Shown here piece after piece: positions 1 through 36,920 of a stretch of 36,920 bases of DNA (the stretch's first letter is position 1; each line of letters starts with the position of its first letter). The notes under the pieces are model-generated. The model worked only from the letters and a program-made list of their open reading frames with translations, was not told where the DNA came from and made no database searches. The position numbers and the translations under genes are program-made. Source of the stretch: Azolla caroliniana (Eukaryota; Plantae; Polypodiophyta); NCBI GenBank assembly GCA_043228905.1, contig JBHGNT010000304.1, positions 1 to 36,920 of the forward strand, in the 5' to 3' direction.

Positions 1-365
1 CTTTCGGAGCGCTCTTGTAGCTCTCGGATCTGCTTGTCGATGAAATCACCGCACTCTCGCCTCAGTTCCTCGTCACGTGGCTCATCGCGACCACGGCTAC
101 GACGTTCCCTTTCCTCTTCGGAGTCTCTCTTGTTGTCTCTGTAGCGGCGCCCCTCCTCAAGGAACCCCTCACGACGTCGCTCGCGCCTCTCGTCATCGCA
201 CTCCCCCTCTCGGCGTCGATCGCGCCTCTCCTCGTCAATGTCTCCCTCACGACGTCGATCGCGTCGCTCCTCTTCACGGTCCCGCCCTACAGACCTAGCA
301 TTGGCCGCGGTACACGCGGCGAGCATGATCACGGCCATGAGGAATACGGAAGTAAGCTTTGCCAT
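1..365 (-). CDS. 2S albumin-like Arg/Glu-rich storage protein precursor, 5' part (3' end outside window)
   Basis: ATG at 363-365 (minus strand). Sequence matches the 5' part (1656-2020) of the first complete copy and is truncated by the window edge. Confidence 0.85.
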   Translation of the reverse strand, partial: MAKLTSVFLMAVIMLAACTAANARSVGRDREEERRDRRREGDIDEERRDRRREGECDDERRERRREGFLEEGRRYRDNKRDSEEERERRSRGRDEPRDEELRRECGDFIDKQIRELQERSE

Positions 366-431
366 TGCGATTGTCCTTATGATCCCGGTGCTTGTCTCCT
401 AATGGATTGTATTGACATTGCTCCCTCCACC

Positions 432-442
432 TTTAATATATA
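432..442 (-). promoter_or_regulatory. TATA box (TATATATTAAA on minus strand); recurs every 1,655 bp
   Basis: AT-only run 67-77 bp upstream of the ATG at 365, in otherwise mixed or GC-rich sequence. Position fits a short 5' UTR. Confidence 0.75.
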
Positions 443-444
443 CA

Positions 445-474
445 CATGGCCATGCAATCAGAGCACATGCATGT
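445..474. promoter_or_regulatory. RY/Sph elements (CATGCA 451-456; CATGCATG 466-473) in a legumin-box-like context; recurs every 1,655 bp
   Basis: Perfect RY octamer inside the palindrome ACATGCATGT, plus CATGGCCATGCAA, directly upstream of the TATA box. RY is the established binding site of B3-domain ABI3/VP1, FUS3 and LEC2 factors in storage-protein promoters. Confidence 0.75.
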
Positions 475-496
475 CACTCACCACTCCCATTACCAT

Positions 497-563
497 AACG
501 TGTGTGTCCTGCGTACAACTCTTGCCCAAGACCCATACCAACTAGTCCACCCTCCCACACGTC
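497..563. promoter_or_regulatory. ACGT-core (ABRE-like) elements AACGTGT (497-503) and CACACGTC (556-563); recur every 1,655 bp
   Basis: bZIP-type ACGT cores about 130-200 bp upstream of the ATG and next to the RY elements. The motifs are short, so chance matches are possible. Confidence 0.45.
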
Positions 564-718
564 TAGGCTAGTCCTAGGTGTCGTATTGTCACCAGACAAT
601 CTGGGCGCAACCTGTAGCGGGTACTCCTCCTCCTCGCGCGAGAGCTTGTCGAGCAACATAACATTTATACATACATAGGTAAATGTGCGCACTCGCGCGT
701 GCGCGTAGGGGTGTGCGG

Positions 719-726
719 GCACGTGC
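719..726. promoter_or_regulatory. G-box GCACGTGC; recurs every 1,655 bp
   Basis: Perfect palindromic CACGTG (720-725) about 355 bp upstream of the ATG. Confidence 0.4.
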
Positions 727-1073
727 ACATTAAACTAGAACGCGCTAGTGCCGAGACACTAAGCACGCGGAGGCTACTGCGGGACGAGTGGTGGCTCCCG
801 AGTGTGCTACATCGATGAACGTAGATAGACCGGTGTCCGTACTCGCTCGTTCGGACGGACGAGGGGTTGGTAACGACGACGACAAGGAAAGCTAACCGGA
901 CTACCACACTAGGAGTGTCCTATCGGGCAAGTGTGGAAGCAAGTTCACATTCGCCGCGTGTACAAGTTGACCTTAGCCTTAGCCGTTGCCGTGGCGTGTG
1001 CGGTATGGGTGTCCTGCTTTGATGTTTTTTTTTCCGTTTGGGTGGTTTGCGGTCCCTATAGGCAAATTCTATG

Positions 1074-1135
1074 CGTTGGTGCTCGTGTTTACGTTCGTGT
1101 TGGAGGGACGTTGGTGCTCGTGTTTACGTTCGTGT
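1074..1135. repeat. Exact 27-bp direct repeat (CGTTGGTGCTCGTGTTTACGTTCGTGT x2, 35-bp period) in the 3' flank; present in every unit
   Basis: Copies at 1074-1100 and 1109-1135, separated by TGGAGGGA. Confidence 0.95.
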
Positions 1136-1222
1136 GGGTGTAATGCGCGATTGGGGAGACGCACTTGTTCGTAAACACTTACGAGAAATTAGAGAGAGAC
1201 CACGAGAATAATTTGAACAAGG

Positions 1223-1228
1223 TTTATG
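1223..1228 (-). terminator. Possible polyadenylation near-upstream element (CATAAA) just after the stop codon
   Basis: One mismatch from AATAAA, followed on the minus strand by U/C-rich sequence. Plant poly(A) signals are degenerate, so this is weak. Confidence 0.25.
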
Positions 1229-1234
1229 TACTAT

Positions 1235-2020
1235 TTAGAAGCGACGAATACAAGCACGAGGGCGAAGATCGCACTGTTGGAGTAGGCGGGAGGCGGCGAC
1301 GCCTAGAGCTCTTTCCTCGTCATCGGCCTTGAATTGGCGACGTTGTTGACGTTCGTCCTCTTGTCGTCGAGACATGCGGTGGCGGCGTTCGTCACCCTCT
1401 CGTCGCTCACGGCTGCTATCTCTCTCGCGCTCCTCGTCCTCTTCCTCCCAGCTACGGTGTTCCCTTGATTGTTGGCCATGGCGTCGGCCTTCATCATTGC
1501 GTCGTTCCTCCTCGTCAGCATACAAGGCATCACGTAGGCGATCGCATCGATCTTCGGCGGGGATTCGTTCGACGTTCCTGCAGCACCGTTCCGAGGGTCT
1601 TGAGTATCGAGTGTTTTCGATCCATGGGGAGCGACGTCCTTGTTCACCTTCCTCTCTTTCGGAGCGCTCTTGTAGCTCTCGGATCTGCTTGTCGATGAAA
1701 TCACCGCACTCTCGCCTCAGTTCCTCGTCACGTGGCTCATCGCGACCACGGCTACGACGTTCCCTTTCCTCTTCGGAGTCTCTCTTGTTGTCTCTGTAGC
1801 GGCGCCCCTCCTCAAGGAACCCCTCACGACGTCGCTCGCGCCTCTCGTCATCGCACTCCCCCTCTCGGCGTCGATCGCGCCTCTCCTCGTCAATGTCTCC
1901 CTCACGACGTCGATCGCGTCGCTCCTCTTCACGGTCCCGCCCTACAGACCTAGCATTGGCCGCGGTACACGCGGCGAGCATGATCACGGCCATGAGGAAT
2001 ACGGAAGTAAGCTTTGCCAT
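1235..2020 (-). CDS. 2S albumin-like (prolamin superfamily) Arg/Glu-rich seed/spore storage protein precursor, 261 aa, copy 1
   Basis: Longest ORF in the unit, with plant-like start context caATGGC. Hydrophobic signal peptide MAKLTSVFLMAVIMLAACTAANA ends in an A-x-A site. Cys skeleton C105, C146-C147 (PSERCC), D157-R-C159, C250 (LLQQC), C257. About 26% Arg and 19% Glu by hand count. TATA and RY elements lie directly upstream. Family call comes from motif recognition, not a database search. Confidence 0.85.
   Translation of the reverse strand: MAKLTSVFLMAVIMLAACTAANARSVGRDREEERRDRRREGDIDEERRDRRREGECDDERRERRREGFLEEGRRYRDNKRDSEEERERRSRGRDEPRDEELRRECGDFIDKQIRELQERSEREEGEQGRRSPWIENTRYSRPSERCCRNVERIPAEDRCDRLRDALYADEEERRNDEGRRHGQQSREHRSWEEEDEERERDSSRERREGDERRHRMSRRQEDERQQRRQFKADDEERALGVAASRLLQQCDLRPRACIRRF
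1820..1936 (-). repeat. Intragenic 39-bp (13-aa) tandem repeat x3: DREEERRDRRREG / DIDEERRDRRREG / ECDDERRERRREG; present in every copy
   Basis: Visible in the translation (residues 29-67) and in the DNA (ccctcacgacgtcg recurs). Two more degenerate units may follow (residues 68-93). Confidence 0.85.
1952..2020 (-). other. Signal-peptide coding segment (residues 1-23); present in every copy
   Basis: Basic n-region (K3), hydrophobic core VFLMAVIMLAA, then A-N-A before RSVGR, then an abrupt switch to charged sequence. Confidence 0.85.
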
Positions 2021-2889
2021 TGCGATTGTCCTTATGATCCCGGTGCTTGTCTCCTAATGGATTGTATTGACATTGCTCCCTCCACCTTTAATATATACAC
2101 ATGGCCATGCAATCAGAGCACATGCATGTCACTCACCACTCCCATTACCATAACGTGTGTGTCCTGCGTACAACTCTTGCCCAAGACCCATACCAACTAG
2201 TCCACCCTCCCACACGTCTAGGCTAGTCCTAGGTGTCGTATTGTCACCAGACAATCTGGGCGCAACCTGTAGCGGGTACTCCTCCTCCTCGCGCGAGAGC
2301 TTGTCGAGCAACATAACATTTATACATACATAGGTAAATGTGCGCACTCGCGCGTGCGCGTAGGGGTGTGCGGGCACGTGCACATTAAACTAGAACGCGC
2401 TAGTGCCGAGACACTAAGCACGCGGAGGCTACTGCGGGACGAGTGGTGGCTCCCGAGTGTGCTACATCGATGAACGTAGATAGACCGGTGTCCGTACTCG
2501 CTCGTTCGGACGGACGAGGGGTTGGTAACGACGACGACAAGGAAAGCTAACCGGACTACCACACTAGGAGTGTCCTATCGGGCAAGTGTGGAAGCAAGTT
2601 CACATTCGCCGCGTGTACAAGTTGACCTTAGCCTTAGCCGTTGCCGTGGCGTGTGCGGTATGGGTGTCCTGCTTTGATGTTTTTTTTTCCGTTTGGGTGG
2701 TTTGCGGTCCCTATAGGCAAATTCTATGCGTTGGTGCTCGTGTTTACGTTCGTGTTGGAGGGACGTTGGTGCTCGTGTTTACGTTCGTGTGGGTGTAATG
2801 CGCGATTGGGGAGACGCACTTGTTCGTAAACACTTACGAGAAATTAGAGAGAGACCACGAGAATAATTTGAACAAGGTTTATGTACTAT

Positions 2890-3675
2890 TTAGAAGCGAC
2901 GAATACAAGCACGAGGGCGAAGATCGCACTGTTGGAGTAGGCGGGAGGCGGCGACGCCTAGAGCTCTTTCCTCGTCATCGGCCTTGAATTGGCGACGTTG
3001 TTGACGTTCGTCCTCTTGTCGTCGAGACATGCGGTGGCGGCGTTCGTCACCCTCTCGTCGCTCACGGCTGCTATCTCTCTCGCGCTCCTCGTCCTCTTCC
3101 TCCCAGCTACGGTGTTCCCTTGATTGTTGGCCATGGCGTCGGCCTTCATCATTGCGTCGTTCCTCCTCGTCAGCATACAAGGCATCACGTAGGCGATCGC
3201 ATCGATCTTCGGCGGGGATTCGTTCGACGTTCCTGCAGCACCGTTCCGAGGGTCTTGAGTATCGAGTGTTTTCGATCCATGGGGAGCGACGTCCTTGTTC
3301 ACCTTCCTCTCTTTCGGAGCGCTCTTGTAGCTCTCGGATCTGCTTGTCGATGAAATCACCGCACTCTCGCCTCAGTTCCTCGTCACGTGGCTCATCGCGA
3401 CCACGGCTACGACGTTCCCTTTCCTCTTCGGAGTCTCTCTTGTTGTCTCTGTAGCGGCGCCCCTCCTCAAGGAACCCCTCACGACGTCGCTCGCGCCTCT
3501 CGTCATCGCACTCCCCCTCTCGGCGTCGATCGCGCCTCTCCTCGTCAATGTCTCCCTCACGACGTCGATCGCGTCGCTCCTCTTCACGGTCCCGCCCTAC
3601 AGACCTAGCATTGGCCGCGGTACACGCGGCGAGCATGATCACGGCCATGAGGAATACGGAAGTAAGCTTTGCCAT
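2890..3675 (-). CDS. 2S albumin-like storage protein precursor, copy 2
   Basis: Translation identical to copy 1. Confidence 0.85.
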   Translation of the reverse strand: MAKLTSVFLMAVIMLAACTAANARSVGRDREEERRDRRREGDIDEERRDRRREGECDDERRERRREGFLEEGRRYRDNKRDSEEERERRSRGRDEPRDEELRRECGDFIDKQIRELQERSEREEGEQGRRSPWIENTRYSRPSERCCRNVERIPAEDRCDRLRDALYADEEERRNDEGRRHGQQSREHRSWEEEDEERERDSSRERREGDERRHRMSRRQEDERQQRRQFKADDEERALGVAASRLLQQCDLRPRACIRRF

Positions 3676-4544
3676 TGCGATTGTCCTTATGATCCCGGTG
3701 CTTGTCTCCTAATGGATTGTATTGACATTGCTCCCTCCACCTTTAATATATACACATGGCCATGCAATCAGAGCACATGCATGTCACTCACCACTCCCAT
3801 TACCATAACGTGTGTGTCCTGCGTACAACTCTTGCCCAAGACCCATACCAACTAGTCCACCCTCCCACACGTCTAGGCTAGTCCTAGGTGTCGTATTGTC
3901 ACCAGACAATCTGGGCGCAACCTGTAGCGGGTACTCCTCCTCCTCGCGCGAGAGCTTGTCGAGCAACATAACATTTATACATACATAGGTAAATGTGCGC
4001 ACTCGCGCGTGCGCGTAGGGGTGTGCGGGCACGTGCACATTAAACTAGAACGCGCTAGTGCCGAGACACTAAGCACGCGGAGGCTACTGCGGGACGAGTG
4101 GTGGCTCCCGAGTGTGCTACATCGATGAACGTAGATAGACCGGTGTCCGTACTCGCTCGTTCGGACGGACGAGGGGTTGGTAACGACGACGACAAGGAAA
4201 GCTAACCGGACTACCACACTAGGAGTGTCCTATCGGGCAAGTGTGGAAGCAAGTTCACATTCGCCGCGTGTACAAGTTGACCTTAGCCTTAGCCGTTGCC
4301 GTGGCGTGTGCGGTATGGGTGTCCTGCTTTGATGTTTTTTTTTCCGTTTGGGTGGTTTGCGGTCCCTATAGGCAAATTCTATGCGTTGGTGCTCGTGTTT
4401 ACGTTCGTGTTGGAGGGACGTTGGTGCTCGTGTTTACGTTCGTGTGGGTGTAATGCGCGATTGGGGAGACGCACTTGTTCGTAAACACTTACGAGAAATT
4501 AGAGAGAGACCACGAGAATAATTTGAACAAGGTTTATGTACTAT

Positions 4545-5330
4545 TTAGAAGCGACGAATACAAGCACGAGGGCGAAGATCGCACTGTTGGAGTAGGCGGG
4601 AGGCGGCGACGCCTAGAGCTCTTTCCTCGTCATCGGCCTTGAATTGGCGACGTTGTTGACGTTCGTCCTCTTGTCGTCGAGACATGCGGTGGCGGCGTTC
4701 GTCACCCTCTCGTCGCTCACGGCTGCTATCTCTCTCGCGCTCCTCGTCCTCTTCCTCCCAGCTACGGTGTTCCCTTGATTGTTGGCCATGGCGTCGGCCT
4801 TCATCATTGCGTCGTTCCTCCTCGTCAGCATACAAGGCATCACGTAGGCGATCGCATCGATCTTCGGCGGGGATTCGTTCGACGTTCCTGCAGCACCGTT
4901 CCGAGGGTCTTGAGTATCGAGTGTTTTCGATCCATGGGGAGCGACGTCCTTGTTCACCTTCCTCTCTTTCGGAGCGCTCTTGTAGCTCTCGGATCTGCTT
5001 GTCGATGAAATCACCGCACTCTCGCCTCAGTTCCTCGTCACGTGGCTCATCGCGACCACGGCTACGACGTTCCCTTTCCTCTTCGGAGTCTCTCTTGTTG
5101 TCTCTGTAGCGGCGCCCCTCCTCAAGGAACCCCTCACGACGTCGCTCGCGCCTCTCGTCATCGCACTCCCCCTCTCGGCGTCGATCGCGCCTCTCCTCGT
5201 CAATGTCTCCCTCACGACGTCGATCGCGTCGCTCCTCTTCACGGTCCCGCCCTACAGACCTAGCATTGGCCGCGGTACACGCGGCGAGCATGATCACGGC
5301 CATGAGGAATACGGAAGTAAGCTTTGCCAT
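4545..5330 (-). CDS. 2S albumin-like storage protein precursor, copy 3
   Basis: Translation identical to copy 1. Confidence 0.85.
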   Translation of the reverse strand: MAKLTSVFLMAVIMLAACTAANARSVGRDREEERRDRRREGDIDEERRDRRREGECDDERRERRREGFLEEGRRYRDNKRDSEEERERRSRGRDEPRDEELRRECGDFIDKQIRELQERSEREEGEQGRRSPWIENTRYSRPSERCCRNVERIPAEDRCDRLRDALYADEEERRNDEGRRHGQQSREHRSWEEEDEERERDSSRERREGDERRHRMSRRQEDERQQRRQFKADDEERALGVAASRLLQQCDLRPRACIRRF

Positions 5331-6199
5331 TGCGATTGTCCTTATGATCCCGGTGCTTGTCTCCTAATGGATTGTATTGACATTGCTCCCTCCACCTTTA
5401 ATATATACACATGGCCATGCAATCAGAGCACATGCATGTCACTCACCACTCCCATTACCATAACGTGTGTGTCCTGCGTACAACTCTTGCCCAAGACCCA
5501 TACCAACTAGTCCACCCTCCCACACGTCTAGGCTAGTCCTAGGTGTCGTATTGTCACCAGACAATCTGGGCGCAACCTGTAGCGGGTACTCCTCCTCCTC
5601 GCGCGAGAGCTTGTCGAGCAACATAACATTTATACATACATAGGTAAATGTGCGCACTCGCGCGTGCGCGTAGGGGTGTGCGGGCACGTGCACATTAAAC
5701 TAGAACGCGCTAGTGCCGAGACACTAAGCACGCGGAGGCTACTGCGGGACGAGTGGTGGCTCCCGAGTGTGCTACATCGATGAACGTAGATAGACCGGTG
5801 TCCGTACTCGCTCGTTCGGACGGACGAGGGGTTGGTAACGACGACGACAAGGAAAGCTAACCGGACTACCACACTAGGAGTGTCCTATCGGGCAAGTGTG
5901 GAAGCAAGTTCACATTCGCCGCGTGTACAAGTTGACCTTAGCCTTAGCCGTTGCCGTGGCGTGTGCGGTATGGGTGTCCTGCTTTGATGTTTTTTTTTCC
6001 GTTTGGGTGGTTTGCGGTCCCTATAGGCAAATTCTATGCGTTGGTGCTCGTGTTTACGTTCGTGTTGGAGGGACGTTGGTGCTCGTGTTTACGTTCGTGT
6101 GGGTGTAATGCGCGATTGGGGAGACGCACTTGTTCGTAAACACTTACGAGAAATTAGAGAGAGACCACGAGAATAATTTGAACAAGGTTTATGTACTAT

Positions 6200-6985
6200 T
6201 TAGAAGCGACGAATACAAGCACGAGGGCGAAGATCGCACTGTTGGAGTAGGCGGGAGGCGGCGACGCCTAGAGCTCTTTCCTCGTCATCGGCCTTGAATT
6301 GGCGACGTTGTTGACGTTCGTCCTCTTGTCGTCGAGACATGCGGTGGCGGCGTTCGTCACCCTCTCGTCGCTCACGGCTGCTATCTCTCTCGCGCTCCTC
6401 GTCCTCTTCCTCCCAGCTACGGTGTTCCCTTGATTGTTGGCCATGGCGTCGGCCTTCATCATTGCGTCGTTCCTCCTCGTCAGCATACAAGGCATCACGT
6501 AGGCGATCGCATCGATCTTCGGCGGGGATTCGTTCGACGTTCCTGCAGCACCGTTCCGAGGGTCTTGAGTATCGAGTGTTTTCGATCCATGGGGAGCGAC
6601 GTCCTTGTTCACCTTCCTCTCTTTCGGAGCGCTCTTGTAGCTCTCGGATCTGCTTGTCGATGAAATCACCGCACTCTCGCCTCAGTTCCTCGTCACGTGG
6701 CTCATCGCGACCACGGCTACGACGTTCCCTTTCCTCTTCGGAGTCTCTCTTGTTGTCTCTGTAGCGGCGCCCCTCCTCAAGGAACCCCTCACGACGTCGC
6801 TCGCGCCTCTCGTCATCGCACTCCCCCTCTCGGCGTCGATCGCGCCTCTCCTCGTCAATGTCTCCCTCACGACGTCGATCGCGTCGCTCCTCTTCACGGT
6901 CCCGCCCTACAGACCTAGCATTGGCCGCGGTACACGCGGCGAGCATGATCACGGCCATGAGGAATACGGAAGTAAGCTTTGCCAT
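6200..6985 (-). CDS. 2S albumin-like storage protein precursor, copy 4
   Basis: Translation identical to copy 1. Confidence 0.85.
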   Translation of the reverse strand: MAKLTSVFLMAVIMLAACTAANARSVGRDREEERRDRRREGDIDEERRDRRREGECDDERRERRREGFLEEGRRYRDNKRDSEEERERRSRGRDEPRDEELRRECGDFIDKQIRELQERSEREEGEQGRRSPWIENTRYSRPSERCCRNVERIPAEDRCDRLRDALYADEEERRNDEGRRHGQQSREHRSWEEEDEERERDSSRERREGDERRHRMSRRQEDERQQRRQFKADDEERALGVAASRLLQQCDLRPRACIRRF

Positions 6986-7854
6986 TGCGATTGTCCTTAT
7001 GATCCCGGTGCTTGTCTCCTAATGGATTGTATTGACATTGCTCCCTCCACCTTTAATATATACACATGGCCATGCAATCAGAGCACATGCATGTCACTCA
7101 CCACTCCCATTACCATAACGTGTGTGTCCTGCGTACAACTCTTGCCCAAGACCCATACCAACTAGTCCACCCTCCCACACGTCTAGGCTAGTCCTAGGTG
7201 TCGTATTGTCACCAGACAATCTGGGCGCAACCTGTAGCGGGTACTCCTCCTCCTCGCGCGAGAGCTTGTCGAGCAACATAACATTTATACATACATAGGT
7301 AAATGTGCGCACTCGCGCGTGCGCGTAGGGGTGTGCGGGCACGTGCACATTAAACTAGAACGCGCTAGTGCCGAGACACTAAGCACGCGGAGGCTACTGC
7401 GGGACGAGTGGTGGCTCCCGAGTGTGCTACATCGATGAACGTAGATAGACCGGTGTCCGTACTCGCTCGTTCGGACGGACGAGGGGTTGGTAACGACGAC
7501 GACAAGGAAAGCTAACCGGACTACCACACTAGGAGTGTCCTATCGGGCAAGTGTGGAAGCAAGTTCACATTCGCCGCGTGTACAAGTTGACCTTAGCCTT
7601 AGCCGTTGCCGTGGCGTGTGCGGTATGGGTGTCCTGCTTTGATGTTTTTTTTTCCGTTTGGGTGGTTTGCGGTCCCTATAGGCAAATTCTATGCGTTGGT
7701 GCTCGTGTTTACGTTCGTGTTGGAGGGACGTTGGTGCTCGTGTTTACGTTCGTGTGGGTGTAATGCGCGATTGGGGAGACGCACTTGTTCGTAAACACTT
7801 ACGAGAAATTAGAGAGAGACCACGAGAATAATTTGAACAAGGTTTATGTACTAT

Positions 7855-8640
7855 TTAGAAGCGACGAATACAAGCACGAGGGCGAAGATCGCACTGTTGG
7901 AGTAGGCGGGAGGCGGCGACGCCTAGAGCTCTTTCCTCGTCATCGGCCTTGAATTGGCGACGTTGTTGACGTTCGTCCTCTTGTCGTCGAGACATGCGGT
8001 GGCGGCGTTCGTCACCCTCTCGTCGCTCACGGCTGCTATCTCTCTCGCGCTCCTCGTCCTCTTCCTCCCAGCTACGGTGTTCCCTTGATTGTTGGCCATG
8101 GCGTCGGCCTTCATCATTGCGTCGTTCCTCCTCGTCAGCATACAAGGCATCACGTAGGCGATCGCATCGATCTTCGGCGGGGATTCGTTCGACGTTCCTG
8201 CAGCACCGTTCCGAGGGTCTTGAGTATCGAGTGTTTTCGATCCATGGGGAGCGACGTCCTTGTTCACCTTCCTCTCTTTCGGAGCGCTCTTGTAGCTCTC
8301 GGATCTGCTTGTCGATGAAATCACCGCACTCTCGCCTCAGTTCCTCGTCACGTGGCTCATCGCGACCACGGCTACGACGTTCCCTTTCCTCTTCGGAGTC
8401 TCTCTTGTTGTCTCTGTAGCGGCGCCCCTCCTCAAGGAACCCCTCACGACGTCGCTCGCGCCTCTCGTCATCGCACTCCCCCTCTCGGCGTCGATCGCGC
8501 CTCTCCTCGTCAATGTCTCCCTCACGACGTCGATCGCGTCGCTCCTCTTCACGGTCCCGCCCTACAGACCTAGCATTGGCCGCGGTACACGCGGCGAGCA
8601 TGATCACGGCCATGAGGAATACGGAAGTAAGCTTTGCCAT
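7855..8640 (-). CDS. 2S albumin-like storage protein precursor, copy 5
   Basis: Translation identical to copy 1. Confidence 0.85.
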   Translation of the reverse strand: MAKLTSVFLMAVIMLAACTAANARSVGRDREEERRDRRREGDIDEERRDRRREGECDDERRERRREGFLEEGRRYRDNKRDSEEERERRSRGRDEPRDEELRRECGDFIDKQIRELQERSEREEGEQGRRSPWIENTRYSRPSERCCRNVERIPAEDRCDRLRDALYADEEERRNDEGRRHGQQSREHRSWEEEDEERERDSSRERREGDERRHRMSRRQEDERQQRRQFKADDEERALGVAASRLLQQCDLRPRACIRRF

Positions 8641-9509
8641 TGCGATTGTCCTTATGATCCCGGTGCTTGTCTCCTAATGGATTGTATTGACATTGCTCCC
8701 TCCACCTTTAATATATACACATGGCCATGCAATCAGAGCACATGCATGTCACTCACCACTCCCATTACCATAACGTGTGTGTCCTGCGTACAACTCTTGC
8801 CCAAGACCCATACCAACTAGTCCACCCTCCCACACGTCTAGGCTAGTCCTAGGTGTCGTATTGTCACCAGACAATCTGGGCGCAACCTGTAGCGGGTACT
8901 CCTCCTCCTCGCGCGAGAGCTTGTCGAGCAACATAACATTTATACATACATAGGTAAATGTGCGCACTCGCGCGTGCGCGTAGGGGTGTGCGGGCACGTG
9001 CACATTAAACTAGAACGCGCTAGTGCCGAGACACTAAGCACGCGGAGGCTACTGCGGGACGAGTGGTGGCTCCCGAGTGTGCTACATCGATGAACGTAGA
9101 TAGACCGGTGTCCGTACTCGCTCGTTCGGACGGACGAGGGGTTGGTAACGACGACGACAAGGAAAGCTAACCGGACTACCACACTAGGAGTGTCCTATCG
9201 GGCAAGTGTGGAAGCAAGTTCACATTCGCCGCGTGTACAAGTTGACCTTAGCCTTAGCCGTTGCCGTGGCGTGTGCGGTATGGGTGTCCTGCTTTGATGT
9301 TTTTTTTTCCGTTTGGGTGGTTTGCGGTCCCTATAGGCAAATTCTATGCGTTGGTGCTCGTGTTTACGTTCGTGTTGGAGGGACGTTGGTGCTCGTGTTT
9401 ACGTTCGTGTGGGTGTAATGCGCGATTGGGGAGACGCACTTGTTCGTAAACACTTACGAGAAATTAGAGAGAGACCACGAGAATAATTTGAACAAGGTTT
9501 ATGTACTAT

Positions 9510-10295
9510 TTAGAAGCGACGAATACAAGCACGAGGGCGAAGATCGCACTGTTGGAGTAGGCGGGAGGCGGCGACGCCTAGAGCTCTTTCCTCGTCATCG
9601 GCCTTGAATTGGCGACGTTGTTGACGTTCGTCCTCTTGTCGTCGAGACATGCGGTGGCGGCGTTCGTCACCCTCTCGTCGCTCACGGCTGCTATCTCTCT
9701 CGCGCTCCTCGTCCTCTTCCTCCCAGCTACGGTGTTCCCTTGATTGTTGGCCATGGCGTCGGCCTTCATCATTGCGTCGTTCCTCCTCGTCAGCATACAA
9801 GGCATCACGTAGGCGATCGCATCGATCTTCGGCGGGGATTCGTTCGACGTTCCTGCAGCACCGTTCCGAGGGTCTTGAGTATCGAGTGTTTTCGATCCAT
9901 GGGGAGCGACGTCCTTGTTCACCTTCCTCTCTTTCGGAGCGCTCTTGTAGCTCTCGGATCTGCTTGTCGATGAAATCACCGCACTCTCGCCTCAGTTCCT
10001 CGTCACGTGGCTCATCGCGACCACGGCTACGACGTTCCCTTTCCTCTTCGGAGTCTCTCTTGTTGTCTCTGTAGCGGCGCCCCTCCTCAAGGAACCCCTC
10101 ACGACGTCGCTCGCGCCTCTCGTCATCGCACTCCCCCTCTCGGCGTCGATCGCGCCTCTCCTCGTCAATGTCTCCCTCACGACGTCGATCGCGTCGCTCC
10201 TCTTCACGGTCCCGCCCTACAGACCTAGCATTGGCCGCGGTACACGCGGCGAGCATGATCACGGCCATGAGGAATACGGAAGTAAGCTTTGCCAT
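9510..10295 (-). CDS. 2S albumin-like storage protein precursor, copy 6
   Basis: Translation identical to copy 1. Confidence 0.85.
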   Translation of the reverse strand: MAKLTSVFLMAVIMLAACTAANARSVGRDREEERRDRRREGDIDEERRDRRREGECDDERRERRREGFLEEGRRYRDNKRDSEEERERRSRGRDEPRDEELRRECGDFIDKQIRELQERSEREEGEQGRRSPWIENTRYSRPSERCCRNVERIPAEDRCDRLRDALYADEEERRNDEGRRHGQQSREHRSWEEEDEERERDSSRERREGDERRHRMSRRQEDERQQRRQFKADDEERALGVAASRLLQQCDLRPRACIRRF

Positions 10296-11164
10296 TGCGA
10301 TTGTCCTTATGATCCCGGTGCTTGTCTCCTAATGGATTGTATTGACATTGCTCCCTCCACCTTTAATATATACACATGGCCATGCAATCAGAGCACATGC
10401 ATGTCACTCACCACTCCCATTACCATAACGTGTGTGTCCTGCGTACAACTCTTGCCCAAGACCCATACCAACTAGTCCACCCTCCCACACGTCTAGGCTA
10501 GTCCTAGGTGTCGTATTGTCACCAGACAATCTGGGCGCAACCTGTAGCGGGTACTCCTCCTCCTCGCGCGAGAGCTTGTCGAGCAACATAACATTTATAC
10601 ATACATAGGTAAATGTGCGCACTCGCGCGTGCGCGTAGGGGTGTGCGGGCACGTGCACATTAAACTAGAACGCGCTAGTGCCGAGACACTAAGCACGCGG
10701 AGGCTACTGCGGGACGAGTGGTGGCTCCCGAGTGTGCTACATCGATGAACGTAGATAGACCGGTGTCCGTACTCGCTCGTTCGGACGGACGAGGGGTTGG
10801 TAACGACGACGACAAGGAAAGCTAACCGGACTACCACACTAGGAGTGTCCTATCGGGCAAGTGTGGAAGCAAGCTCACATTCGCCGCGTGTACAAGTTGA
10901 CCTTAGCCTTAGCCGTTGCCGTGGCGTGTGCGGTATGGGTGTCCTGCTTTGATGTTTTTTTTTCCGTTTGGGTGGTTTGCGGTCCCTATAGGCAAATTCT
11001 ATGCGTTGGTGCTCGTGTTTACGTTCGTGTTGGAGGGACGTTGGTGCTCGTGTTTACGTTCGTGTGGGTGTAATGCGCGATTGGGGAGACGCACTTGTTC
11101 GTAAACACTTACGAGAAATTAGAGAGAGACCACGAGAATAATTTGAACAACGTTTATGTACTAT

Positions 11165-11950
11165 TTAGAAGCGACGAATACAAGCACGAGGGCGAAGATC
11201 GCACTGTTGGAGTAGGCGGGAGGCGGCGACGCCTAGAGCTCTTTCCTCGTCATCGGCCTTGAATTGGCGACGTTGTTGACGTTCGTCCTCTTGTCGTCGA
11301 GACATGCGGTGGCGGCGTTCGTCACCCTCTCGTCGCTCACGGCTGCTATCTCTCTCGCGCTCCTCGTCCTCTTCCTCCCAGCTACGGTGTTCCCTTGATT
11401 GTTGGCCATGGCGTCGGCCTTCATCATTGCGTCGTTCCTCCTCGTCAGCATACAAGGCATCACGTAGGCGATCGCATCGATCTTCGGCGGGGATTCGTTC
11501 GACGTTCCTGCAGCACCGTTCCGAGGGTCTTGAGTATCGAGTGTTTTCGATCCATGGGGAGCGACGTCCTTGTTCACCTTCCTCTCTTTCGGAGCGCTCT
11601 TGTAGCTCTCGGATCTGCTTGTCGATGAAATCACCGCACTCTCGCCTCAGTTCCTCGTCACGTGGCTCATCGCGACCACGGCTACGACGTTCCCTTTCCT
11701 CTTCGGAGTCTCTCTTGTTGTCTCTGTAGCGGCGCCCCTCCTCAAGGAACCCCTCACGACGTCGCTCGCGCCTCTCGTCATCGCACTCCCCCTCTCGGCG
11801 TCGATCGCGCCTCTCCTCGTCAATGTCTCCCTCACGACGTCGATCGCGTCGCTCCTCTTCACGGTCCCGCCCTACAGACCTAGCATTGGCCGCGGTACAC
11901 GCGGCGAGCATGATCACGGCCATGAGGAATACGGAAGTAAGCTTTGCCAT
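11165..11950 (-). CDS. 2S albumin-like storage protein precursor, copy 7
   Basis: Translation identical to copy 1; 3' flank carries G>C at 11151. Confidence 0.85.
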   Translation of the reverse strand: MAKLTSVFLMAVIMLAACTAANARSVGRDREEERRDRRREGDIDEERRDRRREGECDDERRERRREGFLEEGRRYRDNKRDSEEERERRSRGRDEPRDEELRRECGDFIDKQIRELQERSEREEGEQGRRSPWIENTRYSRPSERCCRNVERIPAEDRCDRLRDALYADEEERRNDEGRRHGQQSREHRSWEEEDEERERDSSRERREGDERRHRMSRRQEDERQQRRQFKADDEERALGVAASRLLQQCDLRPRACIRRF

Positions 11951-12819
11951 TGCGATTGTCCTTATGATCCCGGTGCTTGTCTCCTAATGGATTGTATTGA
12001 CATTGCTCCCTCCACCTTTAATATATACACATGGCCATGCAATCAGAGCACATGCATGTCACTCACCACTCCCATTACCATAACGTGTGTGTCCTGCGTA
12101 CAACTCTTGCCCAAGACCCATACCAACTAGTCCACCCTCCCACACGTCTAGGCTAGTCCTAGGTGTCGTATTGTCACCAGACAATCTGGGCGCAACCTGT
12201 AGCGGGTACTCCTCCTCCTCGCGCGAGAGCTTGTCGAGCAACATAACATTTATACATACATAGGTAAATGTGCGCACTCGCGCGTGCGCGTAGGGGTGTG
12301 CGGGCACGTGCACATTAAACTAGAACGCGCTAGTGCCGAGACACTAAGCACGCGGAGGCTACTGCGGGACGAGTGGTGGCTCCCGAGTGTGCTACATCGA
12401 TGAACGTAGATAGACCGGTGTCCGTACTCGCTCGTTCGGACGGACGAGGGGTTGGTAACGACGACGACAAGGAAAGCTAACCGGACTACCACACTAGGAG
12501 TGTCCTATCGGGCAAGTGTGGAAGCAAGCTCACATTCGCCGCGTGTACAAGTTGACCTTAGCCTTAGCCGTTGCCGTGGCGTGTGCGGTATGGGTGTCCT
12601 GCTTTGATGTTTTTTTTTCCGTTTGGGTGGTTTGCGGTCCCTATAGGCAAATTCTATGCGTTGGTGCTCGTGTTTACGTTCGTGTTGGAGGGACGTTGGT
12701 GCTCGTGTTTACGTTCGTGTGGGTGTAATGCGCGATTGGGGAGACGCACTTGTTCGTAAACACTTACGAGAAATTAGAGAGAGACCACGAGAATAATTTG
12801 AACAACGTTTATGTACTAT

Positions 12820-13605
12820 TTAGAAGCGACGAATACAAGCACGAGGGCGAAGATCGCACTGTTGGAGTAGGCGGGAGGCGGCGACGCCTAGAGCTCTTTC
12901 CTCGTCATCGGCCTTGAATTGGCGACGTTGTTGACGTTCGTCCTCTTGTCGTCGAGACATGCGGTGGCGGCGTTCGTCACCCTCTCGTCGCTCACGGCTG
13001 CTATCTCTCTCGCGCTCCTCGTCCTCTTCCTCCCAGCTACGGTGTTCCCTTGATTGTTGGCCATGGCGTCGGCCTTCATCATTGCGTCGTTCCTCCTCGT
13101 CAGCATACAAGGCATCACGTAGGCGATCGCATCGATCTTCGGCGGGGATTCGTTCGACGTTCCTGCAGCACCGTTCCGAGGGTCTTGAGTATCGAGTGTT
13201 TTCGATCCATGGGGAGCGACGTCCTTGTTCACCTTCCTCTCTTTCGGAGCGCTCTTGTAGCTCTCGGATCTGCTTGTCGATGAAATCACCGCACTCTCGC
13301 CTCAGTTCCTCGTCACGTGGCTCATCGCGACCACGGCTACGACGTTCCCTTTCCTCTTCGGAGTCTCTCTTGTTGTCTCTGTAGCGGCGCCCCTCCTCAA
13401 GGAACCCCTCACGACGTCGCTCGCGCCTCTCGTCATCGCACTCCCCCTCTCGGCGTCGATCGCGCCTCTCCTCGTCAATGTCTCCCTCACGACGTCGATC
13501 GCGTCGCTCCTCTTCACGGTCCCGCCCTACAGACCTAGCATTGGCCGCGGTACACGCGGCGAGCATGATCACGGCCATGAGGAATACGGAAGTAAGCTTT
13601 GCCAT
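12820..13605 (-). CDS. 2S albumin-like storage protein precursor, copy 8
   Basis: Translation identical to copy 1; 3' flank carries G>C at 12806. Confidence 0.85.
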   Translation of the reverse strand: MAKLTSVFLMAVIMLAACTAANARSVGRDREEERRDRRREGDIDEERRDRRREGECDDERRERRREGFLEEGRRYRDNKRDSEEERERRSRGRDEPRDEELRRECGDFIDKQIRELQERSEREEGEQGRRSPWIENTRYSRPSERCCRNVERIPAEDRCDRLRDALYADEEERRNDEGRRHGQQSREHRSWEEEDEERERDSSRERREGDERRHRMSRRQEDERQQRRQFKADDEERALGVAASRLLQQCDLRPRACIRRF

Positions 13606-14474
13606 TGCGATTGTCCTTATGATCCCGGTGCTTGTCTCCTAATGGATTGTATTGACATTGCTCCCTCCACCTTTAATATATACACATGGCCATGCAATCA
13701 GAGCACATGCATGTCACTCACCACTCCCATTACCATAACGTGTGTGTCCTGCGTACAACTCTTGCCCAAGACCCATACCAACTAGTCCACCCTCCCACAC
13801 GTCTAGGCTAGTCCTAGGTGTCGTATTGTCACCAGACAATCTGGGCGCAACCTGTAGCGGGTACTCCTCCTCCTCGCGCGAGAGCTTGTCGAGCAACATA
13901 ACATTTATACATACATAGGTAAATGTGCGCACTCGCGCGTGCGCGTAGGGGTGTGCGGGCACGTGCACATTAAACTAGAACGCGCTAGTGCCGAGACACT
14001 AAGCACGCGGAGGCTACTGCGGGACGAGTGGTGGCTCCCGAGTGTGCTACATCGATGAACGTAGATAGACCGGTGTCCGTACTCGCTCGTTCGGACGGAC
14101 GAGGGGTTGGTAACGACGACGACAAGGAAAGCTAACCGGACTACCACACTAGGAGTGTCCTATCGGGCAAGTGTGGAAGCAAGCTCACATTCGCCGCGTG
14201 TACAAGTTGACCTTAGCCTTAGCCGTTGCCGTGGCGTGTGCGGTATGGGTGTCCTGCTTTGATGTTTTTTTTTCCGTTTGGGTGGTTTGCGGTCCCTATA
14301 GGCAAATTCTATGCGTTGGTGCTCGTGTTTACGTTCGTGTTGGAGGGACGTTGGTGCTCGTGTTTACGTTCGTGTGGGTGTAATGCGCGATTGGGGAGAC
14401 GCACTTGTTCGTAAACACTTACGAGAAATTAGAGAGAGACCACGAGAATAATTTGAACAAGGTTTATGTACTAT

Positions 14475-15260
14475 TTAGAAGCGACGAATACAAGCACGAG
14501 GGCGAAGATCGCACTGTTGGAGTAGGCGGGAGGCGGCGACGCCTAGAGCTCTTTCCTCGTCATCGGCCTTGAATTGGCGACGTTGTTGACGTTCGTCCTC
14601 TTGTCGTCGAGACATGCGGTGGCGGCGTTCGTCACCCTCTCGTCGCTCACGGCTGCTATCTCTCTCGCGCTCCTCGTCCTCTTCCTCCCAGCTACGGTGT
14701 TCCCTTGATTGTTGGCCATGGCGTCGGCCTTCATCATTGCGTCGTTCCTCCTCGTCAGCATACAAGGCATCACGTAGGCGATCGCATCGATCTTCGGCGG
14801 GGATTCGTTCGACGTTCCTGCAGCACCGTTCCGAGGGTCTTGAGTATCGAGTGTTTTCGATCCATGGGGAGCGACGTCCTTGTTCACCTTCCTCTCTTTC
14901 GGAGCGCTCTTGTAGCTCTCGGATCTGCTTGTCGATGAAATCACCGCACTCTCGCCTCAGTTCCTCGTCACGTGGCTCATCGCGACCACGGCTACGACGT
15001 TCCCTTTCCTCTTCGGAGTCTCTCTTGTTGTCTCTGTAGCGGCGCCCCTCCTCAAGGAACCCCTCACGACGTCGCTCGCGCCTCTCGTCATCGCACTCCC
15101 CCTCTCGGCGTCGATCGCGCCTCTCCTCGTCAATGTCTCCCTCACGACGTCGATCGCGTCGCTCCTCTTCACGGTCCCGCCCTACAGACCTAGCATTGGC
15201 CGCGGTACACGCGGCGAGCATGATCACGGCCATGAGGAATACGGAAGTAAGCTTTGCCAT
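14475..15260 (-). CDS. 2S albumin-like storage protein precursor, copy 9
   Basis: Translation identical to copy 1. Confidence 0.85.
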   Translation of the reverse strand: MAKLTSVFLMAVIMLAACTAANARSVGRDREEERRDRRREGDIDEERRDRRREGECDDERRERRREGFLEEGRRYRDNKRDSEEERERRSRGRDEPRDEELRRECGDFIDKQIRELQERSEREEGEQGRRSPWIENTRYSRPSERCCRNVERIPAEDRCDRLRDALYADEEERRNDEGRRHGQQSREHRSWEEEDEERERDSSRERREGDERRHRMSRRQEDERQQRRQFKADDEERALGVAASRLLQQCDLRPRACIRRF

Positions 15261-16129
15261 TGCGATTGTCCTTATGATCCCGGTGCTTGTCTCCTAATGG
15301 ATTGTATTGACATTGCTCCCTCCACCTTTAATATATACACATGGCCATGCAATCAGAGCACATGCATGTCACTCACCACTCCCATTACCATAACGTGTGT
15401 GTCCTGCGTACAACTCTTGCCCAAGACCCATACCAACTAGTCCACCCTCCCACACGTCTAGGCTAGTCCTAGGTGTCGTATTGTCACCAGACAATCTGGG
15501 CGCAACCTGTAGCGGGTACTCCTCCTCCTCGCGCGAGAGCTTGTCGAGCAACATAACATTTATACATACATAGGTAAATGTGCGCACTTGCGCGTGCGCG
15601 TAGGGGTGTGCGGGCACGTGCACATTAAACTAGAACGCGCTAGTGCCGAGACACTAAGCACGCGGAGGCTACTGCGGGACGAGTGGTGGCTCCCGAGTGT
15701 GCTACATCGATGAACGTAGATAGACCGGTGTCCGTACTCGCTCGTTCGGACGGACGAGGGGTTGGTAACGACGACGACAAGGAAAGCTAACCGGACTACC
15801 ACACTAGGAGTGTCCTATCGGGCAAGTGTGGAAGCAAGCTCACATTCGCCGCGTGTACAAGTTGACCTTAGCCTTAGCCGTTGCCGTGGCGTGTGCGGTA
15901 TGGGTGTCCTGCTTTGATGTTTTTTTTTCCGTTTGGGTGGTTTGCGGTCCCTATAGGCAAATTCTATGCGTTGGTGCTCGTGTTTACGTTCGTGTTGGAG
16001 GGACGTTGGTGCTCGTGTTTACGTTCGTGTGGGTGTAATGCGCGATTGGGGAGACGCACTTGTTCGTAAACACTTACGAGAAATTAGAGAGAGACCACGA
16101 GAATAATTTGAACAAGGTTTATGTACTAT

Positions 16130-16915
16130 TTAGAAGCGACGAATACAAGCACGAGGGCGAAGATCGCACTGTTGGAGTAGGCGGGAGGCGGCGACGCCTA
16201 GAGCTCTTTCCTCGTCATCGGCCTTGAATTGGCGACGTTGTTGACGTTCGTCCTCTTGTCGTCGAGACATGCGGTGGCGGCGTTCGTCACCCTCTCGTCG
16301 CTCACGGCTGCTATCTCTCTCGCGCTCCTCGTCCTCTTCCTCCCAGCTACGGTGTTCCCTTGATTGTTGGCCATGGCGTCGGCCTTCATCATTGCGTCGT
16401 TCCTCCTCGTCAGCATACAAGGCATCACGTAGGCGATCGCATCGATCTTCGGCGGGGATTCGTTCGACGTTCCTGCAGCACCGTTCCGAGGGTCTTGAGT
16501 ATCGAGTGTTTTCGATCCATGGGGAGCGACGTCCTTGTTCACCTTCCTCTCTTTCGGAGCGCTCTTGTAGCTCTCGGATCTGCTTGTCGATGAAATCACC
16601 GCACTCTCGCCTCAGTTCCTCGTCACGTGGCTCATCGCGACCACGGCTACGACGTTCCCTTTCCTCTTCGGAGTCTCTCTTGTTGTCTCTGTAGCGGCGC
16701 CCCTCCTCAAGGAACCCCTCACGACGTCGCTCGCGCCTCTCGTCATCGCACTCCCCCTCTCGGCGTCGATCGCGCCTCTCCTCGTCAATGTCTCCCTCAC
16801 GACGTCGATCGCGTCGCTCCTCTTCACGGTCCCGCCCTACAGACCTAGCATTGGCCGCGGTACACGCGGCGAGCATGATCACGGCCATGAGGAATACGGA
16901 AGTAAGCTTTGCCAT
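16130..16915 (-). CDS. 2S albumin-like storage protein precursor, copy 10
   Basis: Translation identical to copy 1. Confidence 0.85.
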   Translation of the reverse strand: MAKLTSVFLMAVIMLAACTAANARSVGRDREEERRDRRREGDIDEERRDRRREGECDDERRERRREGFLEEGRRYRDNKRDSEEERERRSRGRDEPRDEELRRECGDFIDKQIRELQERSEREEGEQGRRSPWIENTRYSRPSERCCRNVERIPAEDRCDRLRDALYADEEERRNDEGRRHGQQSREHRSWEEEDEERERDSSRERREGDERRHRMSRRQEDERQQRRQFKADDEERALGVAASRLLQQCDLRPRACIRRF

Positions 16916-17784
16916 TGCGATTGTCCTTATGATCCCGGTGCTTGTCTCCTAATGGATTGTATTGACATTGCTCCCTCCACCTTTAATATATACACATGGC
17001 CATGCAATCAGAGCACATGCATGTCACTCACCACTCCCATTACCATAACGTGTGTGTCCTGCGTACAACTCTTGCCCAAGACCCATACCAACTAGTCCAC
17101 CCTCCCACACGTCTAGGCTAGTCCTAGGTGTCGTATTGTCACCAGACAATCTGGGCGCAACCTGTAGCGGGTACTCCTCCTCCTCGCGCGAGAGCTTGTC
17201 GAGCAACATAACATTTATACATACATAGGTAAATGTGCGCACTCGCGCGTGCGCGTAGGGGTGTGCGGGCACGTGCACATTAAACTAGAACGCGCTAGTG
17301 CCGAGACACTAAGCACGCGGAGGCTACTGCGGGACGAGTGGTGGCTCCCGAGTGTGCTACATCGATGAACGTAGATAGACCGGTGTCCGTACTCGCTCGT
17401 TCGGACGGACGAGGGGTTGGTAACGACGACGACAAGGAAAGCTAACCGGACTACCACACTAGGAGTGTCCTATCGGGCAAGTGTGGAAGCAAGCTCACAT
17501 TCGCCGCGTGTACAAGTTGACCTTAGCCTTAGCCGTTGCCGTGGCGTGTGCGGTATGGGTGTCCTGCTTTGATGTTTTTTTTTCCGTTTGGGTGGTTTGC
17601 GGTCCCTATAGGCAAATTCTATGCGTTGGTGCTCGTGTTTACGTTCGTGTTGGAGGGACGTTGGTGCTCGTGTTTACGTTCGTGTGGGTGTAATGCGCGA
17701 TTGGGGAGACGCACTTGTTCGTAAACACTTACGAGAAATTAGAGAGAGACCACGAGAATAATTTGAACAAGGTTTATGTACTAT

Positions 17785-18570
17785 TTAGAAGCGACGAATA
17801 CAAGCACGAGGGCGAAGATCGCACTGTTGGAGTAGGCGGGAGGCGGCGACGCCTAGAGCTCTTTCCTCGTCATCGGCCTTGAATTGGCGACGTTGTTGAC
17901 GTTCGTCCTCTTGTCGTCGAGACATGCGGTGGCGGCGTTCGTCACCCTCTCGTCGCTCACGGCTGCTATCTCTCTCGCGCTCCTCGTCCTCTTCCTCCCA
18001 GCTACGGTGTTCCCTTGATTGTTGGCCATGGCGTCGGCCTTCATCATTGCGTCGTTCCTCCTCGTCAGCATACAAGGCATCACGTAGGCGATCGCATCGA
18101 TCTTCGGCGGGGATTCGTTCGACGTTCCTGCAGCACCGTTCCGAGGGTCTTGAGTATCGAGTGTTTTCGATCCATGGGGAGCGACGTCCTTGTTCACCTT
18201 CCTCTCTTTCGGAGCGCTCTTGTAGCTCTCGGATCTGCTTGTCGATGAAATCACCGCACTCTCGCCTCAGTTCCTCGTCACGTGGCTCATCGCGACCACG
18301 GCTACGACGTTCCCTTTCCTCTTCGGAGTCTCTCTTGTTGTCTCTGTAGCGGCGCCCCTCCTCAAGGAACCCCTCACGACGTCGCTCGCGCCTCTCGTCA
18401 TCGCACTCCCCCTCTCGGCGTCGATCGCGCCTCTCCTCGTCAATGTCTCCCTCACGACGTCGATCGCGTCGCTCCTCTTCACGGTCCCGCCCTACAGACC
18501 TAGCATTGGCCGCGGTACACGCGGCGAGCATGATCACGGCCATGAGGAATACGGAAGTAAGCTTTGCCAT
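17785..18570 (-). CDS. 2S albumin-like storage protein precursor, copy 11
   Basis: Translation identical to copy 1. Confidence 0.85.
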   Translation of the reverse strand: MAKLTSVFLMAVIMLAACTAANARSVGRDREEERRDRRREGDIDEERRDRRREGECDDERRERRREGFLEEGRRYRDNKRDSEEERERRSRGRDEPRDEELRRECGDFIDKQIRELQERSEREEGEQGRRSPWIENTRYSRPSERCCRNVERIPAEDRCDRLRDALYADEEERRNDEGRRHGQQSREHRSWEEEDEERERDSSRERREGDERRHRMSRRQEDERQQRRQFKADDEERALGVAASRLLQQCDLRPRACIRRF

Positions 18571-36775: not shown

Positions 36776-36920
36776 TGCGATTGTCCTTATGATCCCGGTG
36801 CTTGTCTCCTAATGGATTGTATTGACATTGCTCCCTCCACCTTTAATATATACACATGGCCATGCAATCAGAGCACATGCATGTCACTCACCACTCCCAT
36901 TACCATAACGTGTGTGTCCT

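Follow-up and report, generated by a model that had tools for sequence, protein, structure and literature searches.

The window analysed here, that is the whole of contig C304 (positions 1-36920, 36,920 nucleotides) of a 523-Mb assembly, is filled by a head-to-tail array of 1,655-bp units, and the open reading frame that the sequence-only reading had described at 1235..2020 recurs in it 22-fold. This frame is one unit of a fern gene array of several hundred copies and encodes a six-cysteine, arginine-padded relative of the 2S albumins, and we regard it as probable that this protein is the main nitrogen store of the spore, most likely of the megaspore. Storage in the megaspore would be expected by analogy with matteuccin, a storage protein of fern spores that is considered below.

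Within the window the array (1..36920) comprises 22 complete frames and a partial one, with an exact period of 1,655 bp, and 22 of the 22 frames are intact. When the window is compared with itself at a lag of 1,655 only 13 mismatches are found in 35,265 comparisons; six columns are variable among the units, and any two units differ by 0-3 bases. One repeat unit (1235..2889, minus strand) consists of a 786-bp coding sequence and an 869-bp spacer, the latter being made up of the 3′ flank of one copy and the promoter of the next. No Rfam match at E ≤ 1 is present within window positions 1100-3100, and a linked 5S or snRNA gene, considered as the driver of the array, was discarded because the spacer yielded none. 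Just downstream of the stop codon of the neighbouring copy, the spacer carries a direct repeat of 30 nt and an inverted repeat that is weak (2729-2793 and 2775-2833), both of which could belong to the 3′ UTR.

The array extends far beyond this contig. A 30-nt piece of the coding sequence has 427 exact matches in the assembly (control, 0); those of the family represented in the window, hereafter subfamily A, begin in contig order at C109 among the matches listed, so that none of them lies on the 22 large contigs. Ten array contigs, including the window and, in part, C109 and C117, were read and account for 204 of the 427 matches. They carry 203 full-length A copies, 194 of which are intact and nine broken, with a mean identity of 99.8%, and 139 of the 203 encode exactly the protein of the window (P0001). 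The unit length varies by sub-array between 1,640 and 1,655 bp, and 86 distinct sequences occur among 196 units, their variants being clustered in runs of adjacent units. As in rDNA-like arrays, units are more alike within an array than between arrays, variants are shared within adjacent runs, and the spacers of subfamily A and of the second subfamily described below, B, are unalignable outside a promoter block. The array occupies about 0.2% of the assembly; in comparison, a 30-mer of the 5.8S rRNA occurs 83 times, and the counts of collapsed arrays are inexact for the rRNA and the storage gene alike.

Several mobile elements were observed in these contigs. An LTR retroelement of 7.0 kb (C113, 68741-75757) has 455-bp LTRs that are 100% identical, a 5-bp target duplication and an open frame of 1,479 codons, and further members of its family are found at C162 529-7546, at C117 696-7272 and in the flank on C109, which suggests very recent activity and perhaps a preference for these arrays. 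A coding copy on C238 is interrupted by a second LTR element (29510-36777), which is GC-rich (60%), measures 7.3 kb, has near-identical LTRs and is flanked by a target duplication of 5 bp. Cupin-domain genes showed no short-period arrays (78 matches, with all 96 candidates scored); they do form a cluster of about 20 matches, probably germin-like, in less than 1 Mb of C8 (17.1-18.0 Mb).

Copy number was also estimated in independent DNA. Half or more of the sampled words of the unit are held by 18 of the 24 public runs listed; once three rows that may be the source are set aside, these come from 12 studies, of which seven leaf metagenomes of 2025 may be one campaign. At one array end the adjoining sequence occurs only once in the assembly, its next-best match being 88% over 370 bp, and four runs were compared across this flank, using single-contig depths that are rough. 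In run X14 the depth is 4,337-5,595 over the array and 15.8-19.4 over the flank, giving about 220-350 copies, and in run X13, which carries another organism label, it is 6,841-8,055 and 8.4-8.9, respectively, giving about 770-960 copies; all such estimates assume a homozygous single-copy flank and would be halved if the flank were hemizygous. Run X1, possibly the source sample, gives about 210-300 copies with the flank depth at the assembly floor, and one of its contigs closes on itself head to tail. Run X16 was left out of the ratios because its array contigs are fragmented and only summed depths are shown. The flank contigs of X13 and X14 differ from the assembly by 6-32 letters per piece, and the array-to-flank ratios in these two independent DNA runs show that the array is not an assembly artefact: an array of several hundred copies exists in the DNA.

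The host is a fern. The sequence-only reading had placed the DNA in a non-angiosperm lineage, and this could be narrowed by dynein heavy-chain genes, by a fern-type plastid inverted repeat and by 22 chromosome-scale contigs. Dynein heavy chains, which to our knowledge are absent from angiosperms and conifers, have 19 matches in the assembly. The plastid contig (C1503, 149.7 kb) has a 20.8-kb inverted repeat containing psbA, the rRNA operon and a very long frame taken to be ycf2, its genes having been recognized by eye from the translations, and such a layout marks core leptosporangiate ferns. Frames resembling chlL and chlN are also present on this contig, and rpoB, rpoC2 and ndhF are interrupted by in-frame stops, as is expected from the U-to-C editing that PMC6786969 describes in Salviniales. 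Contig sizes, sampled on 17 contigs, drop from 12.8 Mb for C22 to 0.6 Mb for C23, leaving 22 chromosome-scale pieces, and PMC4199785 gives n = 22 for Azolla, to which the fern likely belongs. Two peculiarities were noted: the end of the inverted repeat that contains trnN recurs as additional short copies at both edges of the small single-copy region (C1503, 104514-105737 and about 127985-128939), bringing the trnN genes to four, and four copies of one dynein heavy-chain piece lie at about 30-kb spacing on the unplaced contig C53 (62977-152170), which may represent either a tandem amplification or a duplication in the assembly.

The gene is an intronless open reading frame on the minus strand (1235..2020), uninterrupted from ATG to stop and encoding a 2S-albumin-like precursor of 261 aa in subfamily A. 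All four motifs quoted by the earlier reading, as well as a hydrophobic N-terminus, are found in it. The predicted signal peptide (residues 1 to about 24; 1949..2020, minus strand) is recognized by a Kyte-Doolittle hydropathy peak of 2.95 over 11 residues (7-17), the best value elsewhere being 1.07, and it is near-identical in subfamily B. It is followed by an N-terminal extension of Arg/Glu/Asp repeats (residues 25-98; 1727..1948, minus strand), in which three 39-nt repeats occur at 1820-1936 and which is longer in B and missing from the compact homologues of Adiantum. A predicted small-chain helix (residues 99-123; 1652..1726, minus strand), seen as a helix in a low-confidence model, bears Cys105, motif cysteine 2, which is invariant in 10 of 10 aligned sequences. 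Next comes the PSERCC...RC block (1520..1606, minus strand) with Cys146, Cys147 and Cys159 (motif cysteines 3, 4 and 6), Asp157 occupying the place of cysteine 5 in the CxC motif. An expanded, Arg/Glu-rich hypervariable loop (residues 168-237; 1310..1519, minus strand) produces long alignment gaps against the compact homologues, and the C-terminal block SRLLQQCDLRPRxC (1235..1309, minus strand), with Cys250 and Cys257 (motif cysteines 7 and 8), is nearly invariant among the window, B, the unnamed relative P0007 and Adiantum and is aligned to the last helix of Mo-CBP4.

The protein had been called arginine-loaded and unusually long, and both descriptions hold. P0001 contains 26.1% Arg, 18.8% Glu, 9.6% Asp and only 4.2% Gln, and with 261-358 aa the fern precursors exceed the typical 2S precursor of about 155 aa, the added length being Arg/Glu/Asp padding ahead of the first helix and in the hypervariable loop. 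Nitrogen makes up 21.9% of the mass in A and 22.1% in B, against a textbook share of 16% for proteins, and the calculated pI after residue 24 is 5.8. A protamine-like role was rejected in view of this pI and the signal peptide. A plus-strand frame of 141 aa (1374-1799) mirrors the Arg/Glu codons in antisense, and matches to the Pfam Conotoxin family (E 0.06-0.38) are weak and confined to the region of the signal peptide.

Membership in the prolamin superfamily rests on several profile comparisons. Against Pfam PF00234 the whole P0001 scores 21.7 bits (E 2.5e-4), exactly the curated cut-off of 21.7, and residues 94-261 rise above it with 23.2 bits (E 8.4e-5), so the profile check proposed with the earlier reading came out at the threshold for the whole protein and beyond it for the core. 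For B the whole proteins score 19.9-20.0 bits, below the cut-off, and the core 22.6; the Adiantum homologues reach 31.8 bits. The whole-protein scores of 19.9-21.7 bits are borderline and count against the family call. Single-protein searches returned no named relative (one match among 7,119 candidates and two among 1.84 billion representatives), a search with residues 98-170 gave none among nine candidates, and a PDB sequence search with P0001 or with the A/B alignment gave nothing under E 0.05. A profile of the A/B core instead retrieved four proteins among 4,519 candidates, namely two hypothetical proteins of Adiantum capillus-veneris (E 0.011-0.012) and two unnamed ones, and the clusters of these matches name eight Adiantum loci of 128-132 aa; HHalign relates the window family to these homologues with a probability of 97.9%. 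When a profile of 10 sequences was compared with the PDB, the top three matches were 2S albumins (Mo-CBP4 with E 4.6e-7 over profile positions 28-125, then E 1.8e-4 and 4.5e-4), cereal inhibitors ranked after them from E 1.8e-3, and no lipid-transfer protein was among the 13 matches. Both Adiantum and the 2S structures were thus reached only through alignment-based searches, which place the family nearer to the 2S albumins than to cereal inhibitors or lipid-transfer proteins. Three ESM Atlas matches (0.82, 0.76 and 0.87), each to PF00234, are all under 0.9 and serve as leads only.

The cysteines set this family apart. Instead of the canonical eight-cysteine motif C-C-CC-CxC-C-C, six cysteines are conserved: all 10 aligned sequences have Asp or Glu at position CC+11, and they share no first cysteine. 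The inter-chain bonds of napin are Cys10-Cys62 and Cys23-Cys51 (PMC8674280), which correspond to motif cysteines 1-5 and 2-3. The acidic residue at CC+11 and the lack of a conserved first cysteine thus mean that one whole disulfide pair, C1-C5, is missing. Three bonds possibly remain, 105-146, 147-250 and 159-257. With six of the eight cysteines the protein is 2S-like rather than a canonical 2S albumin, and the 2S-albumin-like assignment of the sequence-only reading stands on PF00234, on the fern homologues and on the PDB profile search topped by 2S albumins, but not as far as canonical status is concerned. Other features of 2S albumins, a hydropathy-predicted N-terminal signal peptide and intronless tandem genes, are present. 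Among the homologues, the unnamed P0007 (246 aa) has an independent Glu/Arg/His padding in its linker and the unnamed P0010 (130 aa) is compact, and padding of a 2S-like scaffold appears to have arisen more than once.

Structure prediction added little. AlphaFold returned one long helix from the single sequence and a pLDDT of 58 from three sequences, and both models are unusable; the searches started from them, in which Foldseek found no match and VIA-align gave a best Z of 4.9 among unrelated helices, are uninformative. Two-chain folding with ESMFold2 of residues 94-126 with 138-261 scored 0.38, the best control being 0.02, which is weak support; at least 90% of the contacts agree between runs and the partner pLDDT is 65-66. 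The mark used for this score is reached by 51 of 78 solved pairs and by 2 of 108 mismatched ones, and at scores of 0.60 or less there are only five solved pairs against all four passing mismatches. Furthermore, resemblance to solved 2S structures may explain the score obtained.

Subfamily B was exposed by a search with the unnamed relative P0002. Its units measure 2,161 or 2,200 bp, encode proteins of 336-358 aa and lie on at least 11 other contigs, and a B-specific 31-mer occurs 168 times in the assembly; in 100 kb of B array that were read, 28 of 36 copies are intact and eight broken. Decayed B copies broken by retroelements are found on the chromosome-scale contig C12 (13,062,620-13,114,563, that is 13.06-13.11 Mb), where a B fragment abuts a 100-N scaffold gap at 13,114,463 that is likely the place on the chromosome to which a B array belongs. 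Run X13 contains a second variant of depth about 2,800 (window 1975-2309), which shows 32 differences and 23 gap letters in the promoter region and points to a further amplified subfamily in the organism of that run.

Comparison of A and B gives a dS of about 0.9 and a dN/dS of 0.19 (202 codons; bootstrap 0.12-0.30), with regional values of 0.15 for the cysteine blocks, 0.27 for the loops and 0.09 for codons 1-40, and both subfamilies are under purifying selection. Within A, all variants taken together (41 amino-acid-changing, 84 silent or spacer; p 0.21) are consistent with neutrality. Among the variants common to at least 20 of 196 units, 10 are silent or in the spacer and none changes an amino acid (p 0.01), a pattern that fits selection on the pooled product and not on single copies, bearing in mind that shared variants are not independent events.

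The proximal promoter block (2092..2156, minus strand) is the sole part of the spacer that can be aligned between A and B (77% over 66 nt, E 3e-9). It includes a TATA box (2092-2097), two RY-type motifs (2106-2111 and 2121-2128) and an ACGT core (2153-2157). RY hexamers, the B3-factor sites of seed storage genes, number three against 0.49 in shuffled sequences (p 0.02), an enrichment that is modest when taken alone. The full-text search found no literature on RY motifs in ferns, and PMC5379062 reports that fern LAFL genes (ABI3/LEC2/LEC1-type) are expressed in mature sporangia. No RNA run with the window's own sequence was among the runs listed. In run X20 of a related organism, probably RNA by the guess of the tool (5.3 million contig letters), most of the coding region is covered at a depth of 5e3-1.7e5, many sequence variants being present on 296 contigs, and in X19, from the same study, the depth is 8-58. 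This contrast of about 1000-fold suggests strong and stage-limited expression in the relative, although the species label of both runs is a different one and expression is poorly measured by contig depth; missing spacer cover in X19 and X20 was not taken as proof of RNA, since the spacer may be too diverged.

Other explanations of these data have to be weighed. An array made by assembly or library, through duplicated long reads or concatemers, might be suspected from the fact that all A matches listed sit on unplaced contigs, that several contigs are pure array and that overlapping contigs could inflate the count of 427. Such an origin is already largely refuted by the 86 distinct unit sequences among 196 with variants shared in runs, by LTR insertions with 5-bp target duplications within the arrays, by depth ratios in the hundreds for X13 and X14, whose flank contigs differ from the assembly, and by the 18 of 24 listed runs that hold half or more of the unit's words, and we consider it extremely improbable. 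A less remote alternative, which we still judge unlikely, is that a real storage gene was carried along in a neutral or selfish, satellite-like amplification in which few copies matter and copy number is unselected. Such a process would account for the neutral build-up of rare variants, the young LTR elements inserted in coding sequences, the broken copies (4% of A and 22% of B), the decayed B copies on C12 and a copy number that is about three-fold apart between X14 and X13. It is harder to reconcile with two subfamilies at a dS of about 0.9 that are both arrayed as exactly one gene plus promoter, with the finding of no common amino-acid-changing variant and with the many variants in the deep, probable-RNA run of the relative; moreover, redundant copies are expected to tolerate rare mutations even with dosage selection.

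The function itself may be read in another way, as that of a mainly defensive or structural protein, either an antifungal or inhibitor similar to Mo-CBP and the cereal inhibitors or a component of the massulae or of the spore-wall matrix. The signal peptide would suit such a role, and an antifungal 2S protein as well as amylase/trypsin inhibitors are among the best structural matches; however, the growth from about 130 aa in Adiantum to 261-358 aa consists almost entirely of Arg/Glu/Asp padding with 22% nitrogen, the length of this padding differs between the subfamilies, which fits bulk storage better than binding, and the promoter block is of the seed-storage type. We give this possibility little credence, below that of unselected amplification.

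Under the preferred reading of a dosage-selected spore storage gene, B3 factors of the ABI3/LEC2 type that bind RY motifs would switch on hundreds of identical promoters during spore maturation. Its signal peptide would send the precursor into storage vacuoles, disulfides Cys105-146, 147-250 and 159-257 would hold a compact four-helix core and the charged Arg/Glu/Asp extensions would lift nitrogen to 22% of the mass at near-neutral net charge, and proteolysis at germination would free the arginine. Each array would be kept uniform by unequal crossing-over or conversion, and it would be through selection on total output that the copy number stays high and the common variants stay silent. A reason for high output may be found in the biology of the host: as stated in PMC11314209, only one megaspore matures per megasporocarp in Azolla. 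In its broader form, to which we assign about even chances, this reading holds that ferns of the Azolla type have at least two old, three-disulfide, arginine-padded 2S-like subfamilies in concertedly evolving arrays, totalling 500 to more than 1,000 mostly intact copies, dosage-selected for the fast loading of megaspores with symbiont-fixed nitrogen in the form of a protein with 22% nitrogen.

The family can be set beside several known systems. With the 2S albumins of seeds (napin, Mo-CBP3/4, mabinlin) it shares the signal peptide, the C..CC..C..C..C scaffold and a hypervariable loop at the same place, and 2S albumin genes are intronless and tandem as a rule (PMC4366206). It differs from them in having six cysteines and not eight, 261-358 aa as opposed to about 155, and an Arg/Glu-rich and not Gln-rich composition. 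In gene number the difference is larger, since the supplementary table concerned (Supplementary Data 7 of PMC10006428) gives 0-21 2S genes over 19 species and here there are hundreds. The eight Adiantum loci (GOP47_0008549, 0011519/20/24/25, 0011995/96 and 0030837), whose neighbouring locus numbers suggest small clusters, have the same six cysteines and the PSxxCC and SRLLQQCDLRPR motifs (SRLLQQCxLRPRxC); unlike the window family they are 128-132 aa long, lack the padding, contain 13-16% Arg, are eight named loci as opposed to hundreds and bear no storage annotation. Matteuccin, the ostrich fern's 2.2S spore storage protein (Rodin and Rask, 1990), is cited in PMC4973428 as evidence for 2S proteins in fern spores; by that description it is likewise a fern 2S-related protein.

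As regards genome organization, the alpha-zeins of maize also are tandem storage genes with copy-number variation, unequal crossing-over and transposon insertions, and PMC3121756 gives 23-30 genes in the densest half megabase and 1-9% genic DNA. The fern array has more than 10 times as many copies, with one gene per 1.65 kb, 47% coding sequence and 99.8% mean identity. Arrays of rDNA and histone genes evolve concertedly and consist of uniform, head-to-tail, near-identical units. The fern arrays resemble them in their spacers, which diverge between subfamilies, in the inserted retroelements and in ending up on unplaced contigs, but their unit is one gene, likely stage-specific, for a protein of the secretory pathway. 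Full-text searches of papers open without subscription turned up no report of the gene or of its rDNA-like amplification, and the word ‘albumin’ occurs 0 times in the main texts of PMC6786969, PMC12400808 and PMC8386757. Fern 2S proteins were already known, and it is the rDNA-like amplification that is surprising, with no earlier report in the literature searched. A fern 2S-like family fits the relevance to storage albumins before seeds that the earlier reading had proposed, but a pre-seed 2S protein is not new, matteuccin dating from 1990.

These results bear on the origin of seed storage proteins. A survey of 2023 (PMC10006428) scores Azolla filiculoides, like other plants without seeds, as having zero 2S albumin genes and proposes that these genes arose in seed plants. 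That published inference is corrected by the hundreds of 2S-like genes described here and by their compact homologues in Adiantum. Arrays of this kind are left on unplaced contigs and would therefore tend to escape standard annotation, and the broader reading, if true, would explain the zero score of Azolla in such a survey and would exceed the storage-gene copy numbers of the papers cited by more than 10-fold. With the six-cysteine fern subfamily and its promoter, it becomes possible to test directly whether the LAFL/RY storage programme was co-opted from spore to seed. Furthermore, the arrays are a rare example of a protein-coding gene amplified in the manner of rDNA within a small plant genome, useful for the study of dosage selection and concerted evolution.
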